A DNA stretch of 64,000 bases from Candidatus Latescibacterota bacterium (GTDB lineage Bacteria; Latescibacterota; UBA2968), in assembly GCA_965204745.1 (NCBI GenBank), contig OZ242010.1, positions 3,840,001 to 3,904,000 on the forward strand. The letters are read 5' to 3'. This document shows positions 35,911-60,720 of this stretch, piece by piece. The translations under genes were made by a program, and so were the position numbers. The notes beneath the pieces are model-generated. The model ran no database searches. It was not told the origin of the DNA and worked only from the letters and a program-made list of their open reading frames with translations. Every line of letters starts with the position of its first letter. The stretch's first letter is position 1.

Positions 35911-36990
35911 ATGATGCGCCGCCGCAGGAAAAACCGAATTTACAAATGGTTGTTGTGGATCGTCGGGGTGATCGGAACCCTTGTGCTCGCGCTCGCGCTG
36001 ATCCAAATCGACGATATCGTCATGGCCCAAGGCATTGTCGAACCCGGGGACAAGGTCTATATCGACTCGCCCATGAGCCGCGTGTTGCACGAAGTCTTTG
36101 TCGAACCCGGAGACTCGGTGACAGTGGGCCAACCCGTCGCCCAACTGTACGATGGGGATTTGAAAGCCACGGCGACAACCGCCGAACAGGAAATCAAACG
36201 GGAAATCGCCAACCTCGAAGCCGCGCGCGCCCAACTCGCCCTGTTGCGCGAAAAGCCCACGCAGGAAGAACTCAGGATCGCGGAATCGCGCGTGGAGCAA
36301 GCGCGCATCAGCCTCACGGCGCGGCAGCAAGAGCTCAAACGCGCCGAGGCCCTGTACCAAGGGCAACGTATCTTCAGCCAAGAGGACTACGAGCGCGCAC
36401 AGACCAATTACGACCTCGCGGCGGCCAACCTCAAGGTGGCAAACGAAAATCTCAACTTGGTGCGGCGCGGCCCCTTGGCTTCGGAAATTCAACATGTGGA
36501 AGCCACAGTGCGCCAAACCCAAGCCGCATTGGACAAGGCAAAACACAACAGCGAAGCGGCCCGCGAAGCGTTTGAACGCGCGACCATGCGCTCGCCGGTC
36601 AATGGCGTGGTGGTGCGCCAAGACCTGTACCCGGGCATGCAGGCCAATCAGGGCGCCATTGTCATGATCATCGCAGGCGAGGGCGAGGGCGTGGTGATCG
36701 ACGCGTGGATGCCCGAGACCAGTGCTTGGAAGGTGCTACCCGGGCAATCCGTGGAAATTTTGAGCAATCTGTTCACGGACCGCGAGGGCTTTCTCGGTCA
36801 GGGCGAGGTGTCCGAGGTTCACGGGTACGCGATTCACGAAGGCGGGGTTCGCACGTTTGCGTTGGAGGTCGCGGTCGAGCAGGCGCCCATTTCCCTGAGC
36901 TTTGGCTCCACCGCTGATTTGCGGATCTACGTGGGCAAGCGCAGCATTTTGCAGACGGTACTGGGGTGGGATAGCGCGGTTCAAGAGTAG
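35911..36990 (+). CDS. HlyD-family membrane fusion protein
   Basis: N-terminal TM, VEPGDSVTVGQ lipoyl half, coiled coil, RSPVNGVV. Confidence 0.85.
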   Translation: MMRRRRKNRIYKWLLWIVGVIGTLVLALALIQIDDIVMAQGIVEPGDKVYIDSPMSRVLHEVFVEPGDSVTVGQPVAQLYDGDLKATATTAEQEIKREIANLEAARAQLALLREKPTQEELRIAESRVEQARISLTARQQELKRAEALYQGQRIFSQEDYERAQTNYDLAAANLKVANENLNLVRRGPLASEIQHVEATVRQTQAALDKAKHNSEAAREAFERATMRSPVNGVVVRQDLYPGMQANQGAIVMIIAGEGEGVVIDAWMPETSAWKVLPGQSVEILSNLFTDREGFLGQGEVSEVHGYAIHEGGVRTFALEVAVEQAPISLSFGSTADLRIYVGKRSILQTVLGWDSAVQE

Positions 36991-37064
36991 TCAGTGGTCA
37001 GTGGTCAGTCCGCCCCCCCCCCATCACCCATAGGGACAGGCACAGGGGCCTGTCCTCAGTCAGT

Positions 37065-37351: not shown

Positions 37352-38641
37352 ATGACCCTCATGCATTCAGAAAACGAAATCACATCTCGAGACGCGCTTT
37401 GCGACTGGCAGTTGAAACGCTTGCGGAGCCTGCTGTGCGCGGTCTTGGCGGACAATGCGTTTTACCGCGAAAAGCTCACGCGGGCGGGCATTCGGCGGGC
37501 AGAAGACATCCAAACCATCGCGGACTATCGCCAACTGCCCTTCACCACCAAAGCGGAATTGTCCGCGGATCAAGCGGCGCATCCGCCCTACGGCAACAAC
37601 CTCACGTTCCCGGCAGAACACTACCTCCGCCTCCATCAAACATCCGGCACCGCCGGCAACCCCTTGCGCTGGTTGGACACGGAAAGCAGTTGGGCGTGGT
37701 TTGCGCGTTGCTGGCTCCCGGTGTATCGCGGGGCGGGCGTAACCGCAAATGACACCGTGTTTTTTGCGTTTTCATTCGGCCCGTTCATCGGGTTCTGGTC
37801 CGCATTTGAAGCGGCCCGCTTGATGGGCGCGTTGTCGATCTCTGGCGGGGCCATGTCCTCCATCCAACGCCTGCAAGCGATTCGGGATCACGAGGCCACC
37901 GTGCTCATCTCCACGCCCACTTATGCCCTGCATCTCGCAGAAGTGGCCCATGCCGAAGGCATCGACATCGCCAACAGCAGCATTCACACCACCATTCACG
38001 CGGGCGAACCGGGCGCGGGATTGCCCGCAACCAAAGCGCGCATCGAACAGGCATGGGGCGCGCGGTGTTACGACCATGCAGGGGCCACAGAAGTGGGCGC
38101 GTGGGGATTTGAATGCGCGTTGCAAAATGGCATGCACATCAACGAGCGCGAATTTATCTGCGAAGTGATCGACCCCAACACCGGCGAACACGCGCTTGAA
38201 GGCGAACTCGCGATCACCAATTTGGGACGCATCGGCATGCCCGTCATCCGCTACCGCACGGGAGACCGCATCCACCTAAACCCCGAACCCTGCGCGTGTG
38301 GCTCTGTTTTCTCGCGTCTGATAGGCGGCGTGATCGGGCGCATCGACGATGCCGTGATCATCCGAGGCGTGAATGTCTATCCCAGTACCATCGAAAATAT
38401 CGTGCGGAGTTTTCCCGAGGTCGCGGAATTTGCCGTGGATATTTACCGCCGCAGCGAAATGGACGACATGGAAATCCGCTTGGAACTCAACGGCGGGCCG
38501 CAAGGGTCGGTTGCCGATGCCATCGTCCGCGAAGTGCGCCACATCTTGGGCATTCGCGCGGGCGTTCAAACCGTACCGCCCAATACCCTTCCGAGATTCG
38601 AACTCAAGGCGCGGCGATTCAATGATCATAGAGAGAGGTGA
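37352..38641 (+). CDS. Phenylacetate-CoA ligase family (PaaK-like)
   Basis: LPFTTKAEL, QTSGTAG, AGEPG, RYRTGD, GRIDD. Confidence 0.88.
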   Translation: MTLMHSENEITSRDALCDWQLKRLRSLLCAVLADNAFYREKLTRAGIRRAEDIQTIADYRQLPFTTKAELSADQAAHPPYGNNLTFPAEHYLRLHQTSGTAGNPLRWLDTESSWAWFARCWLPVYRGAGVTANDTVFFAFSFGPFIGFWSAFEAARLMGALSISGGAMSSIQRLQAIRDHEATVLISTPTYALHLAEVAHAEGIDIANSSIHTTIHAGEPGAGLPATKARIEQAWGARCYDHAGATEVGAWGFECALQNGMHINEREFICEVIDPNTGEHALEGELAITNLGRIGMPVIRYRTGDRIHLNPEPCACGSVFSRLIGGVIGRIDDAVIIRGVNVYPSTIENIVRSFPEVAEFAVDIYRRSEMDDMEIRLELNGGPQGSVADAIVREVRHILGIRAGVQTVPPNTLPRFELKARRFNDHRER

Positions 38642-38716
38642 GAGGCAAGAGGTGAGAGGCGAAAAGCGCAAGAGGGGAGAGGCAAGAGGCAAGAGGCAAG
38701 ATACTCTCTTAAAAGG

Positions 38717-39724
38717 TCAAGGGGTTTTCGGGGTGATTCGATAGAATTTTTCGCCCTCAAAATCTTGGTCATGGCGCAACATGCCCCAGATCGAATGGAG
38801 CAACTTTCGCATCACCGCAACGATAGCCTGCAAAGGTTTCTTGCCGCGGGCGATGAGTTGGTCATAGAAGGCTTTGACATGGCCTTCGTGTCTGATGGCC
38901 ACCCAGGCAGGCATATAGAGGGCATGGCGGAGGTACTTATTCCCGGTTTTCGAGATGCGTCTTTGTGGATTGGCGGTTCCGGATTGTTTGGGTTTGGGAT
39001 CCAGGCCTGCATGTGCGACCCACTGGGGCGGTTGCATCTCCTCTGGCAAAAGGGTCAACTCGGCCAAGAGCCGCAAGGCACTCGTTTGCGCGATGCCAGG
39101 CGTCGAGCAGAGGCGTTGGTAGGCACGCTTGAGGGGCTCATCGTGCAAAACGAGATCGAGGGCTTGGCTTTCCAAGTATGCAATCCGGCGTTTGAAGTGT
39201 CGAATATTCACCTGAATATCGCGTGCGATGAGACGTGTGCTGCGGATGTGGTAGCTCTGCGCGTGGTTGCGGCTCTGTTCGCGGATGATCTCCTGCTTGA
39301 GTTGGTCAATGCGTCTGGTGAGGGCTTGCAGTTGAAGCCGTTGCTCGCTCGGCGCTTGCCAAGGCACAAAAGGCATGCGCTCGGCATAGTCGAGGATCAA
39401 CAACGCATCCTTCGCATCCGTCTTCGCCCGTTGCATGCAGGCTTGGGCGTACTTGCTCATCGCTTTGGGATTGACGACCATGACCTTTGTGTGGCGATGC
39501 CGATGCAAGGCCAAGGCCACCCCCAAACTGTAAAGCCCGGTCGCTTCGAGGCACACAGAGACCATGTGCCCGCCCTTCGTGAGCCACTTCAGCAACCGCT
39601 TATGCGCTTGGGGATCATTGGCAAAGGTCGCTTGCATGACAGCTTGTCCGGGTCTGGACAGGGCAACGGACAACGTGCGGGCACTGACATCAATGCCGGC
39701 AAAAGCGGGGTGAGATTTCGACAT
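38717..39724 (-). CDS. IS110-family DEDD recombinase
   Basis: GIDVS, LEATG, KTDAKDA, PGI, QSG, AVMRKL. Confidence 0.93.
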   Translation of the reverse strand: MSKSHPAFAGIDVSARTLSVALSRPGQAVMQATFANDPQAHKRLLKWLTKGGHMVSVCLEATGLYSLGVALALHRHRHTKVMVVNPKAMSKYAQACMQRAKTDAKDALLILDYAERMPFVPWQAPSEQRLQLQALTRRIDQLKQEIIREQSRNHAQSYHIRSTRLIARDIQVNIRHFKRRIAYLESQALDLVLHDEPLKRAYQRLCSTPGIAQTSALRLLAELTLLPEEMQPPQWVAHAGLDPKPKQSGTANPQRRISKTGNKYLRHALYMPAWVAIRHEGHVKAFYDQLIARGKKPLQAIVAVMRKLLHSIWGMLRHDQDFEGEKFYRITPKTP

Positions 39725-39744
39725 GGGGGCCTCCTGTGATGAGG

Positions 39745-39950
39745 GGGTTGTAAGGGATCTGGTGCGCGCTCGGGGTCGCGTCCCGACCATTGACGCCAAG
39801 TCTACCGGTCTTGTATATGCAGCCTCAAGGGGCTTAGATACTCTTCGGCATAGACCCGGCGGTCGGGGGGCCTATCTTACCTACAAGGTCATCGCCTTCA
39901 AGAGGGGCCGGCCTTCCCCGAGCCGGGCATCAAGATGGCTTATCTCGATA
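39745..39950 (-). ncRNA. Bridge RNA of IS110 copy 1 (boundaries approximate)
   Basis: Loops contain CCCCUCU/AGGUAAGA (target) and GAGUAUCU/AUACAAGA (donor) matching the junctions. Confidence 0.8.
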
Positions 39951-40098
39951 CGAGGGCGCAACTCCTAATTAACCCTTACTTCCAAGATACAAGAGGGGAA
40001 AGGCGAAAAGCGAAAAGCGCAAGAGGGGAGAGGTAAGACGGAAGAGGGGAGATGGGAGTTTAGAGCGGGCCGCAGGATAAATTGTTAGGAATGTTGCT

Positions 40099-41358
40099 AT
40101 GATCTCGACGCACTACGATGTCATTGTCATTGGTGGCGGGCCGGCCGGGAGTACGACGGCGGCACTCGTTGCGGAGTACGGGCACCGGGTCTTGTTGCTG
40201 GAGCGGGAGGAATTTCCCCGATTTCAGATCGGCGAATCCCTGATGCCCGGCACGTATTGGTCGTTCAAACGCCTGGGCCTGTTGGACAAATTGGAAAAAA
40301 GTGCCTTTGTAAAAAAATACAGCGTGCAATTTTTCAGCAGTTCGGGCAAAGGCTCTGCGCCGTTTTACTTTTTCAAACACGACCCCCACGAAAGTTCCAT
40401 CACCTATCAGGTGTTGCGAAGCGAATTTGATTTGATGATGCTGGACAATGCCCGGGAAAAGGGCGCCGAAGTTGTGCAGGGAACGAGCGTGCATCGCGTG
40501 CATTTCACTGGGGACCGGGCAACGGGCGTCCAGATCAAAGGCCGCAACGGGCAGGGCCAAGACATTCTCGCCGATGTCATCGTGGATGCCACGGGCCGCA
40601 GCGCGCTCATCTCGAGACGGCTGAAAACCAAAACCGTGGAGCCGAAACTCAAAAAAGCCTCCATCTTCACGCACTTCAAAGGCGGGTTGCGCGACCCCGG
40701 CATCGACGAAGGCGCGACCCTGATTTTGCATACCCGCGACAAGGACTCCTGGTTTTGGTACATCCCCCTGCCCGATGATGTGGTCAGCGTGGGCGTTGTC
40801 GGCGGCTTGGATACCCTGCTCCAAAACCGTAGCGGAACGCCGCGGGAAATTTTTGACGAGGAATTGGCAAAGTGCATCCCCATGTGCGAACGCCTCGCGT
40901 CTGCCGAGCAGTTGTTTCCCATGAAAGTCACGCAGGATTTCTCGTACCGATCCCGCGTTGCCGCGGGCGAGGGCTGGGTGTTGGTCGGCGATGCGTTTGG
41001 GTTTATCGACCCGGTCTATTCCTCGGGCGTGTTCCTCGCGCTCAAATCCGGCGAGATGGCCGCCGATGCGATCCACGAAGCCCTTGAAAAGCGCGATTTC
41101 TCCGCGGAGCAACTCGGCAACTGGGCACCGGAATTTCTGCCGGGCATGGAAGCGATCCGCAAGTTGGTCTATGCGTTTTATTCCAAAAATTTCAGTTTTG
41201 CCAAGTTCCTCAAAGCGCATCCCGAATGTATTGACGGCGTGATCAACATCCTCAAAGGCTATGTCTATCGGGAAGACGTCACCCCGATTTTTGAACCGAT
41301 GGGCCGCATGTGCGACCTACCCGAAGATGTGGCACACTACGCCGAAGCCGCGTCTTAA
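40099..41358 (+). CDS. FAD-dependent halogenase-like oxidoreductase
   Basis: GGGPAG, FPRFQIGESL, WFWYIP, GDAFGFIDPVYSSG. Confidence 0.82.
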   Translation: MISTHYDVIVIGGGPAGSTTAALVAEYGHRVLLLEREEFPRFQIGESLMPGTYWSFKRLGLLDKLEKSAFVKKYSVQFFSSSGKGSAPFYFFKHDPHESSITYQVLRSEFDLMMLDNAREKGAEVVQGTSVHRVHFTGDRATGVQIKGRNGQGQDILADVIVDATGRSALISRRLKTKTVEPKLKKASIFTHFKGGLRDPGIDEGATLILHTRDKDSWFWYIPLPDDVVSVGVVGGLDTLLQNRSGTPREIFDEELAKCIPMCERLASAEQLFPMKVTQDFSYRSRVAAGEGWVLVGDAFGFIDPVYSSGVFLALKSGEMAADAIHEALEKRDFSAEQLGNWAPEFLPGMEAIRKLVYAFYSKNFSFAKFLKAHPECIDGVINILKGYVYREDVTPIFEPMGRMCDLPEDVAHYAEAAS

Positions 41359-43150: not shown

Positions 43151-43248
43151 GGTCAGTAGTCAGTGGTCAGTAGTCAGTGGTCAGTGGTCAGTAGTCAGTG
43201 GTCAGTGGTCAGTAGTCAGTGGTCAGTAGTCAGTGGTCAGTAGTCAGT
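43151..43248. repeat. Heptamer tandem repeat (GTCAGTR) x about 14
   Basis: Direct reading; shorter or related arrays at 15725, 36990, 57297, 59225 and 60667. Confidence 0.92.
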
Positions 43249-50248: not shown

Positions 50249-51544
50249 AGATACTCTCTTAAAAGGTCAAGGGGTTTTCGGGGTGATTCGATAGAATTTT
50301 TCGCCCTCAAAATCTTGGTCATGGCGCAACATGCCCCAGATCGAATGGAGCAACTTTCGCATCACCGCAACGATAGCCTGCAAAGGTTTCTTGCCGCGGG
50401 CGATGAGTTGGTCATAGAAGGCTTTGACATGGCCTTCGTGTCTGATGGCCACCCAGGCAGGCATATAGAGGGCATGGCGGAGGTACTTATTCCCGGTTTT
50501 CGAGATGCGTCTTTGTGGATTGGCGGTTCCGGATTGTTTGGGTTTGGGATCCAGGCCTGCATGTGCGACCCACTGGGGCGGTTTGCATCTCCTCTGGCAA
50601 AAGGGTCAACTCGGCCAAGAGCCGCAAGGCACTCGTTTGCGCGATGCCAGGCGTCGAGCAGAGGCGTTGGTAGGCACGCTTGAGGGGCTCATCGTGCAAA
50701 ACGAGATCGAGGGCTTGGCTTTCCAAGTATGCAATCCGGCGTTTGAAGTGTCGAATATTCACCTGAATATCGCGTGCGATGAGACGTGTGCTGCGGATGT
50801 GGTAGCTCTGCGCGTGGTTGCGGCTCTGTTCGCGGATGATCTCCTGCTTGAGTTGGTCAATGCGTCTGGTGAGGGCTTGCAGTTGAAGCCGTTGCTCGCT
50901 CGGCGCTTGCCAAGGCACAAAAGGCATGCGCTCGGCATAGTCGAGGATCAACAACGCATCCTTCGCATCCGTCTTCGCCCGTTGCATGCAGGCTTGGGCG
51001 TACTTGCTCATCGCTTTGGGATTGACGACCATGACCTTTGTGTGGCGATGCCGATGCAAGGCCAAGGCCACCCCCAAACTGTAAAGCCCGGTCGCTTCGA
51101 GGCACACAGAGACCATGTGCCCGCCCTTCGTGAGCCACTTCAGCAACCGCTTATGCGCTTGGGGATCATTGGCAAAGGTCGCTTGCATGACAGCTTGTCC
51201 GGGTCTGGACAGGGCAACGGACAACGTGCGGGCACTGACATCAATGCCGGCAAAAGCGGGGTGAGATTTCGACATGGGGGCCTCCTGTGATGAGGGGGTT
51301 GTAAGGGATCTGGTGCGCGCTCGGGGTCGCGTCCCGACCATTGACGCCAAGTCTACCGGTCTTGTATATGCAGCCTCAAGGGGCTTAGATACTCTTCGGC
51401 ATAGACCCGGCGGTCGGGGGGCCTATCTTACCTACAAGGTCATCGCCTTCAAGAGGGGCCGGCCTTCCCCGAGCCGGGCATCAAGATGGCTTATCTCGAT
51501 ACGAGGGCGCAACTCCTAATTAACCCTTACTTCCAAGATACAAG
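50249..51544 (-). mobile_element. IS110-family element, copy 2
   Basis: Matches copy 1 apart from a 1-bp insertion near 50582; flank AGGTAAG..AGGGG. Confidence 0.92.
50267..51275 (-). pseudogene. IS110 recombinase with a 1-bp frameshift
   Basis: GGGCGGTTTGC versus GGGCGGTTGC; ORF split into 287-aa and 65-aa pieces. Confidence 0.85.
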
Positions 51545-59223: not shown

Positions 59224-59250
59224 TGACAACTGACAACTGACAACTGACCT

Positions 59251-60624: not shown

Positions 60625-60720
60625 CCAACGCCGAAGTCCAGTGACTTTCCGAGGGGTTGGGCGGGGACTGACAACTGACAACTGACAACTGACAACTGCT
60701 TTTCTTTTTTGGAGGAATCC

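Follow-up and report, generated by a model that had tools for sequence, protein, structure and literature searches.

The bridge RNAs of IS110 insertion sequences were described by Durrant et al. 2024 (PMC11208160), whose account includes natural covariation of guides and targets across IS110s, right target guides (RTGs) that are longer in some orthologues, and the targeting of host repeats. The structure of IS621 and its handshake guides were reported by Hiraizumi et al. 2024 (PMC11208158), and the seekRNA is described in PMC11187229. In the published model the left target guide (LTG) has the sense of the left target and the RTG is complementary to the right target, with the same rule applying to the left and right donor guides (LDG and RDG) of the donor loop (PMC11208160). 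We analysed a stretch of 64,000 nucleotides (the window) of contig OZ242010.1 from a Candidatus Latescibacterota bacterium, in which positions 38699-39993 very probably represent an IS110-subgroup, IS621-type insertion sequence whose bridge RNA targets one rare junction within host heptamer repeats. The genome that holds the window (G000) is a single contig of 5,482,115 bases, to which coordinates prefixed G000:C1 refer, and its nearest public relatives are metagenome-assembled genomes labelled Latescibacteria or Latescibacterota.

The features of the element are collected in Table 1. A first-pass annotation, made from the letters of the window, had proposed the element boundaries, a CT core, the target CCCCT-CT-TACCT, and the circle junction GAGTAT-CT-TGTAT, and all of these coordinates were verified on the minus strand. 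By inspection there are no terminal inverted repeats: the ends read TGTATC... and ...GAGTAT. The window contains a second copy, whose sole difference from copy 1 is an inserted A that shifts the frame ahead of the catalytic Ser. Comparison with the flanks bears out that copy 2 matches its target perfectly and copy 1 with one wobble (U:G). The proposal that both copies lie inside simple repeats holds in full for copy 1, with period-7 tracts on both sides (38641-38701 and 39994-40058); copy 2 has such an array on the side of its right end (RE) only. An IS1111-type element, with a seekRNA encoded downstream of the recombinase gene, would share with the IS110 subgroup the DEDD recombinase and RNA guidance, which PMC11187229 describes as common to both groups, but only 16 nt of non-coding sequence separate the stop codon from the right end here, and the 267 nt upstream hold all four guides, making that assignment extremely improbable.

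Table 1. Features of the IS110-family element and its second copy (window positions; LE, left non-coding end; LT and RT, left and right target flanks)
Feature	Position	Strand	Basis or remark
Copy 1 of the IS110-family element with both CT cores	38699..39993	-	ends of 52 aligned genomic copies
Copy 1, element proper, 1291 nt	38701-39991	-	
Copy 1 left junction	LT CCCCT 39998-39994; core CT 39993-39992; LE from TGTAT at 39991	-	
Copy 1 right junction	RE end ...GAGTAT at 38701; core CT 38700-38699; RT TGCCT 38698-38694	-	
Recombinase gene, 335 codons	38717..39724	-	only long frame of the element
LE encoding predicted bridge RNA, 267 nt	39725..39991	-	structured part to ~39781
LTG CCCCU + core-binding CU	39901..39907	-	same sense as left flank + core
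RTG AGGUA + core-binding AG	39876..39882	-	reverse complement of CT-TACCT
Probable handshake guide AU, target-binding loop	39874..39875	-	complementary to donor positions 6-7
LDG AGAGUAU + CU	39836..39844	-	identical to last 7 nt of RE + core
RDG AUACA + AG (39816-39810), then probable handshake A (39809)	39809..39816	-	reverse complement of CT-TGTAT
TATCTT, -10 half of putative circle promoter	39984..39989	-	read from sequence
TTGACC, -35 half in RE, overlapping stop codon TGA (38719-38717)	38715..38720	-	read from sequence
LE-side heptamer array; last unit is left target CCCCT (39998-39994)	39994..40058	.	Tandem Repeats Finder, period 7
RE-side heptamer array; first unit is right target TGCCT (38698-38694)	38641..38698	.	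Tandem Repeats Finder, period 7, 8.4 copies
Element copy 2, flanks CCCCT-CT-TACCT, recombinase frame broken	50249..51544	-	one extra A at ~50582-50584

The protein encoded by copy 1 matches Pfam families PF01548 (1.2e-24, 87.3 bits) and PF02371 (4.8e-20, 72.2 bits), both above the Pfam cut-offs, as well as the NCBIfam equivalog NF033542, "IS110 family RNA-guided transposase" (213.8 bits; cut-off 140). It combines a DEDD RuvC-like domain with a Tnp domain, and its catalytic D/E/D/D and Ser-Gly residues are intact: D12, E60, D103, D106, and S248-G249 align with D11, E60, D102, D105, and S241-G242 of IS621 (the PDB chain numbering is offset by +2 in this alignment), which are reported as essential (PMC11208158). 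Only two PDB matches are found, both of them bridge recombinases, ISCro4 (9t56; 7.6e-40, residues 7-326) and IS621 (8wt6; 5.8e-36), and protein homologues are very numerous (3473 with E<=1e-30 among 5451 candidates). The 335-codon frame is open in 51 of the 52 full-length copies, the exception being copy 2 of the window, and 34 encode an identical protein.

The guides in the LE specify the target CCCCT-CT-TACCT and the donor AGAGTAT-CT-TGTAT. For the donor, AGAGUAUCU equals the RE end plus core and AUACAAG is the reverse complement of CT-TGTAT, both being kept in the LE alignment described below. The guide words picked out in the first-pass annotation needed little revision: the LTG CCCCUCU (39907-39901) stands and also fits the flanks of other copies, the LDG GAGUAUCU (39843-39836) extends one base further, to 39844 (AGAGUAU-CU), the core-binding part of the RDG AUACAAGA (39816-39809) ends at 39810, and the RTG AGGUAAGA (39882-39875) keeps its position and its AGGUA-AG but not its last A. 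By analogy with IS621, in which the handshake guide A81/U82 lies opposite dA6/dT7 (PMC11208158), this 3' A of AGGUAAGA and the U that follows it probably fit the place of a handshake guide better than they fit target pairing, the AU being complementary to donor positions 6-7 (the A and T of GAGTAT). As a control for chance, the 215-nt LE was shuffled 200,000 times; the two target-guide 7-mers co-occurred in 27 of the shuffled sequences, and the full set of four guides in none.

BLAST retrieves 52 full-length copies from G000, 99-100% identical in DNA, and all of them read LT-CT-TGTAT...GAGTAT-CT-RT when aligned, with CT at both junctions. Their guide pairs are CCCCU/AGGUA (45 copies), CGCCU/AAGUA (4), UGCCU/AAGUA (2), and UCCCU/AGGUG (1), and we scored the ten non-core flank bases of each copy against its own guides. 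Watson-Crick pairing at 10/10 positions is seen in 23 copies, a single G:U-type wobble without mismatch in 20, and one to three mismatches in 9. The first-pass annotation had held that unrelated targets in other copies would refute its reading; this outcome is not seen, 43 of the 52 copies pairing fully with their own target guides. The left flank and core match the CCCCU-CU guide in 41 of the 45 copies bearing it. The four CGCCU/AAGUA copies have left flanks CGCCT (3) or CACCT (1) and right flanks TACTT (3) or TACCT (1), the UCCCU/AGGUG copy sits at TCCCT-CT-CACCT, perfect on both arms, and the RTG variants AAGUA, AGGUG, and ACGGG are found with flanks TACTT, CACCT, and CCCGT, respectively. 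A BLAST search with the LE only widens the sample to 59 G000 loci in which the target loop is covered; they carry at least 8 different guide pairs, each variant next to its cognate flanks. Several truncated relic copies are also present in the genome.

The host arrays consist of (CTYNCST)n heptamers, and the element targets a rare junction at which two unit types meet. We determined the occupancy of every NNNNN-CT-NNNNN site in G000, on both strands, counting as occupants the 45 copies that carry CCCCU/AGGUA (Table 2); 2769 array-type CT sites are empty. Occupancy of the perfect site differs from that of all other array sites with p = 4e-34 and from that of the wobble site with p = 1e-7 (Fisher's exact test). 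As the perfect site is mostly filled and the commonest junctions never are, the element aims at a rare junction of two unit types and not at the repeat generally. The earlier suggestion that the bridge RNA is programmed against the host's repeat is thus correct in placing the target inside the repeat, and too broad in that one rare junction (25 sites) is used and the abundant ones are not.

Table 2. Occupancy of array-type sites in G000 by the CCCCU/AGGUA copies
Site	Occupied	Total	Share occupied
CCCCT-CT-TACCT (perfect)	20	25	80%
CCCCT-CT-TGCCT (one wobble)	17	82	21%
TACCT-CT-TACCT	4	87	5%
TGCCT-CT-TGCCT	0	241	0%
TGCCT-CT-CACCT	0	121	0%
CACCT-CT-CACCT	0	117	0%

Three of the nine mismatched copies fit the guides of another resident locus. 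The copies at 1927357 and 5150702, misfits to their own guides, sit at CCCCT-CT-CCCGT, which is the target specified by a mini-element elsewhere in the genome, and the misfit copy at 602728 sits at the site specified by the guides of the copy at 1297010. Because all copies share one donor junction, the bridge RNA of one copy can probably direct the circle of another, and the flanks of these three copies suggest bridge RNAs acting in trans on the shared donor. The mini-element (~190 nt; G000:C1:2972659-2972850) consists of an LE, its target loop complete, joined at a short AAGA microhomology to the final bases of the RE; it has lost the -35 box, and its guides CCCCU/ACGGG specify CCCCT-CT-CCCGT. 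RE-like termini GAGTATCT outside the element proved to be the LDG inside LE copies (some truncated) or unrelated sequence, and no two-ended miniature inverted-repeat transposable element was found among them. Two full-length copies lie head to tail at G000:C1:1121571-1124190, spaced by CT-TACCT-CT only, that is, by one heptamer unit between two cores.

We searched 40 related genomes and find the element at E<=1e-20 in three of them: G016 (9 matches), G018 (19), and G036 (4; 54% identity). By RpoB, G016 and G018 are the nearest kin of G000, with 94% identity versus 89-90% for the other 18 genomes of the genus. The element of G018 has the LTG CUCGCCU-CU and lies within heptamer arrays, its LT being CGCCT or CACCT in 14/18 loci. 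The RTG AGAAA of G016 accompanies the RT TTTCT (CT-TTTCT) in 5/7 loci, ACGUU in G036 accompanies AACGT in 3/3 loci, and CCGUU in a Gemmatimonadota locus (L026) accompanies AACGG. At the level of sequence, the guide variants in G000 and the orthologues in other genomes change together with their insertion sites.

A few loci of the relatives differ in their ends or surroundings. At two of the three 54%-identical copies of G036 (L034 and L038) the left junction is ...CAT-TGTAT, lacking CT, and the last two bases of the LTG are AU instead of CU, with the CT kept at the right junction; the left-junction core may differ there, or the register may be shifted. A more distant IS110 relative in the same genome, with 33% identity (L042; G036:C1:4262482-4263399 and upstream), begins CT-TGTATCTTG and is inserted directly after a hairpin of the repetitive extragenic palindromic (REP) type (GGGCGGGCACAGGGGCCCGCCC-CT). 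The shared start at this level of identity indicates that the donor end is conserved well beyond the close kin of the element. We also looked for an empty site in relatives: the two flanking genes are adjacent in G016, but the 258-nt spacer between them lacks both array and element, so that it is no clean pre-insertion site, and in G018 and G001 these genes are not adjacent.

Folding of the left end, suggested as a check in the first-pass annotation, yields the two-loop architecture of a bridge RNA: after a 5' hairpin come two internal loops, both closed by a stem and both containing an inner hairpin, and the guides lie on the unpaired sides. The GGCC closure proposed for the target loop is recovered in the centroid fold, where GGCC 39913-39910 pairs with GGCC 39872-39869, and in 21-22 of 22 aligned sequences. 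These 22 LEs, chosen for distinct variants from the 59 G000 loci and 26 fetched loci, comprise 9 from G000, 5 from G016, 6 from G018, 1 from G036, and 1 from the Gemmatimonadota contig, and their consensus structure (5 genomes) has the same two loops. Over 36 curated pairs, 97.6% of cells are paired and 7 pairs show changes on both sides; 0/500 shuffles reach any of five measures, and slid partners are 31-56% paired. Variable alignment columns are concentrated in both target guides, and the LDG is invariant in 21/22 sequences. Variable target guides beside fixed donor guides are what a bridge RNA with a programmable target loop and a constant donor would be expected to show. In the main family, the core-binding AG of the RDG is followed by A, and target position 7 is T. 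Each of the six relative groups (G016, G018, G036, L026, and two relic copies) has G instead; five of these groups have C at target position 7 and one, G018, has T (a G:T wobble). The second handshake position of the donor loop does not pair.

On the model of IS621, the circle, the transcript, and the catalysis can be proposed for this element as follows. The element would excise as a circle, and the joining of RE to LE would place the -35 box TTGACC (38720-38715) 18 nt before the -10 box TATCTT (39989-39984), creating a promoter that would transcribe the LE into bridge RNA. The donor-binding loop would then hold the circle junction AGAGTAT-CT-TGTAT and the target-binding loop the chromosomal site CCCCT-CT-TACCT, and a tetramer of the DEDD/Ser recombinase would exchange strands at the CT core. 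The TTGACC-18-TATCTT arrangement had been predicted in the first-pass annotation; it is present in the sequence, and both boxes are conserved in relatives, being kept in four genomes (G000, G016, G018, and G036); the spacer is 18 nt long in the main subfamily and one nucleotide shorter (17 nt) in the 95% subfamily and the three relatives. Its broader assignment, an IS621-type bridge-RNA mechanism with a CT core, is supported by the domains, the catalytic residues, the two-loop RNA, and the fit of guides to flanks across copies.

Several results weigh against this assignment. Six of the 52 copies fit no resident guide, four of them at TACCT-CT-TACCT, one at CGCCT-CT-TACCT, and one at CCCCT-CT-TGCCC. 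The first four have one perfect arm and may resemble the half-match insertions reported for IS621 (10.64898/2026.08.31.748434), and repeat changes after insertion could look alike. Among relatives, only three bases (CCC) of the right arm pair in G018, in 16/18 loci, and the C/T-rich left arm of G016 fits weakly (0-2 mismatches, ambiguous register). The copy at 1297010 has one mismatch in its own left donor guide. The fold energy of the single LE sequence is no better than that of shuffles (z = -1.39; 21/200 shuffles equal), so that support for the structure is comparative and not thermodynamic, and the shuffle controls of the alignment overstate significance, since the LE sequences are related and not independent. 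A scan of 38000-40500 against Rfam at E<=10 gave four chance-level matches and no bridge-RNA family, the library perhaps holding no such model, and no RE-LE circle junction occurs among the contigs of four public runs, in which rare forms are dropped.

Part of this bears on whether the site might instead be chosen by the protein or by the structure of the repeat DNA, the guide-like words then being coincidental or captured from the target. Short matches come easily in the low-complexity, C/T-rich repeat that contains all the targets, and the single-sequence fold is not significant, but the guide words stand on the unpaired sides of a conserved two-loop scaffold, and the right guide runs in the reverse-complement sense, as the published model demands. 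Guides and flanks vary together in at least four guide variants of G000 and in four orthologues, the element never uses the abundant array junctions, and the four guide words never coincide in the shuffles given above. We therefore regard selection by protein or DNA structure as very improbable and retain guidance by the bridge RNA.

It is a separate matter whether the family still moves. A bridge-RNA element by descent that is now inactive, its guide-flank fit recording past activity, would be in keeping with contigs of the four runs that contain neither a circle junction nor an unambiguous empty-site allele, with the frameshift in copy 2 of the window, and with the several truncated relics. 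It agrees poorly with the near-identity of the copies in DNA, the open frames and identical proteins counted above, the intact catalytic residues, and perfect sites that are 80% filled. The guide variants 39881 C>T and 39907 G>A, which correspond to subfamily guides, are moreover present in runs of other studies, and we consider inactivity unlikely. Part of the stretch is present in twenty public runs from eight studies, several of these runs carrying the label sponge metagenome, and in the contigs of the four runs the summed depth of the element is far above that of its flanks (~35-60x in run X1, a figure that is not a copy number). One contig of X1 that skips from 38693 to 40001 (1307 nt; 40 nt on the shorter side) was considered as an empty allele and rejected, both of its sides lying in genome-wide heptamer arrays.

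The relation between the element and the arrays can be read in two directions. Runs of at least 4 CTYNCST units number 1283 in G000, 1196 in G018, 3 in G016, and 0-20 in the other 38 genomes, and the two array-rich genomes are those whose element targets arrays. Recombination in shifted register between CT cores could on these grounds have built the arrays, whose period of 7 equals core (2) plus guide arm (5), and CTTGTAT (LE start plus core) is a unit in some of them, once as a tandem duplicate. Yet the commonest units and junctions (TGCCT, CACCT) match no resident guide, G016 has the element with only 3 arrays, and of 20 further genomes in the genus, 16 contain a small number of these arrays, 14 of the 16 lacking the element. 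Other heptamer satellites (GACAACT, GACCACT) are abundant in G000 as well, and the close kinship of G000, G016, and G018 reduces the co-occurrence of arrays and element to at most two events. An origin of the arrays in the element is thus distinctly unlikely, and we read the sequences as a target loop that tracks an abundant host satellite rather than an element that builds it, the element of G016 having no need of arrays.

Further heptamer satellites occur in the window at 43151-43248, 59224-59248, 60667-60698, and 36986-37009 (GGTCAGT/AGTCAGT, TGACAAC, and ACTGACA); they are common and adjoin many copies. Several heptamer arrays have CTTGTAT as a unit at their edge, and TGTATCT stands twice in tandem at G000:C1:2459526-2459545 (TCCCC-CT-TGTAT-CT-TGTAT-CT-TGGAAG...), so that the LE heptamer can itself duplicate.

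We further find short sequences that could be remnants of the element. The sequence CTTGTATCTT (core plus the first 8 nt of the LE, that is, the right-donor half-site and -10 box) occurs 212 times in G000, about 53 of these being element ends. A repeat family with 151 sites in G000, outside the window, normally reads ...TTCCCC-CT-TCCTCGYAGGCAC, and at 16-17 of the 151 sites, in at least 6 left contexts, TGTATCT, the first 5 nt of the LE plus CT, is inserted exactly after that CT (G000:C1 3668574, 1079907, 2981522, 4573316, 234964, and ~11 near-identical sites). The rest of the family is empty at this CT (for example, at 622571 and 4580038). Elsewhere, relics of the element occupy the same CT (left junctions at 921770 and 1263485, right junction at 5088585), and their guides (CCCCC or UUCCC with UAGGA or CAGGA) specify the CT site of this family. 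The heptamer GTATCTT stands as a direct repeat on both sides of every copy, made up on one side of LE bases 2-8 and on the other of the RE end with core and first target base. The LE begins CT-TGTAT-CT and so contains a second CT core, and the GTAT-CT there resembles the left donor arm. Were the stretch between the GTATCTT repeats deleted, exactly the TGTATCT state would result; such a deletion may occur through the recombinase acting at the second CT or through replication slippage.

That IS621-type elements sometimes leave such a 7-nt TGTATCT footprint, and that footprints made by the recombinase seed half-sites, is a tentative proposal that we doubt more than we favor. REP-like hairpins headed by CTTGTATCTT (for example, G000:C1:72130-72150 and 149716-149736, and G016 loci L058-L077) number 143, 193, and 234 in three element-bearing genomes and 0-3 in the other 18 genomes of the genus, a distribution that is confounded by kinship. 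Related hairpins without the head are found throughout the genus; in G008 none of 19 sampled hairpins carries the head, and one further site, picked by the head pattern, does. Insertion of these REP-like elements by the resident bridge RNA was rejected as a simple model, since 0/20 sampled left flanks in G016 match the G016 target, and a footprint at the target of G016 itself (CTTGTATCTTTTCT) occurs at one site each in G000, G016, and G018, without enrichment. Half-match reactions have been reported, as have partial circles in which one donor end is used again (10.64898/2026.08.14.744561), and no description of a 7-nt footprint of IS110 excision was found in the portions of the literature searched, 2026 preprints included. 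If the proposal is true, bridge recombinases spread their own half-sites through the genome and help shape host repeat families, and such half-sites could serve the half-match reactions of the 2026 preprints.

The mechanism, the family, and the targeting of repeats are already published; the present genome offers an unusually clear view of the mechanism at work. The first-pass annotation had taken both the ortholog and its repeat-directed specificity to be new, which is overstated, since repeat targeting and covariation are described in PMC11208160, although no paper linking IS110 with heptanucleotide repeats was found in the literature searched. As the mechanism is established, the value of the locus lies in natural history and as a possible resource. 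It offers a natural profile of specificity, with occupancy falling from 80% at perfect sites to 21% with one rU:dG wobble and 0% at other junctions, a property so far mostly measured in screens. Within a single genome there are 59 bridge-RNA loci that share one donor and differ in their target loops (at least 8 variants), and some copies are natural cases that would agree with guiding in trans or with one-arm half-match insertion. The symmetrical target arms of 5+2 nt, in a phylum without cultured members, may interest collectors of bridge recombinases, and for annotation the ~50 copies and their flanking arrays become one RNA-guided element and its target instead of unexplained repeats.

Among known systems, the IS1111 group with its seekRNA (Siddiquee et al. 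2024, PMC11187229) resembles the element in having an RNA-guided DEDD recombinase and specific targets, and differs in that its guide RNA is described as lying downstream of the gene, with subterminal inverted repeats, whereas the RNA here lies upstream. The ISPpu9 and ISPpu10 elements of Pseudomonas putida are closer in habit, their IS110 copies all being reported in one repeated intergenic sequence (PMC12288879; 10.64898/2026.03.19.712850); their targets are REP-type or conserved intergenic sequences, unlike the heptamer arrays here. The transposase of ISCro4 (PDB 9t56) is the best match of solved structure (7.6e-40) in the protein alignment. The fullest parallel is with IS621 of E. coli (PMC11208160, PMC11208158, PDB 8wt6), which, as published, shares the recombinase architecture and five catalytic residues, an LE-encoded bridge RNA with target and donor loops, the CT core, the guide senses, and a host repeat as target, and which would probably also share the AU handshake guide opposite donor A6-T7 and a promoter split between RE and LE. 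The two are distant in protein (5.8e-36), and a blastn search with the full element found no match in any of the complete E. coli genomes, so the comparison rests on protein alignment and published descriptions. The guides of IS621 are described as a nine-base LTG and a four-base RTG (PMC11208160), whereas both target arms here have 5 nt plus core, and the IS621 target is a REP palindrome, whereas the junction here lies inside heptamer tandem arrays. Compared with IS621, the element of the window stands out for its ~50 copies and at least 8 target-loop variants within one genome.

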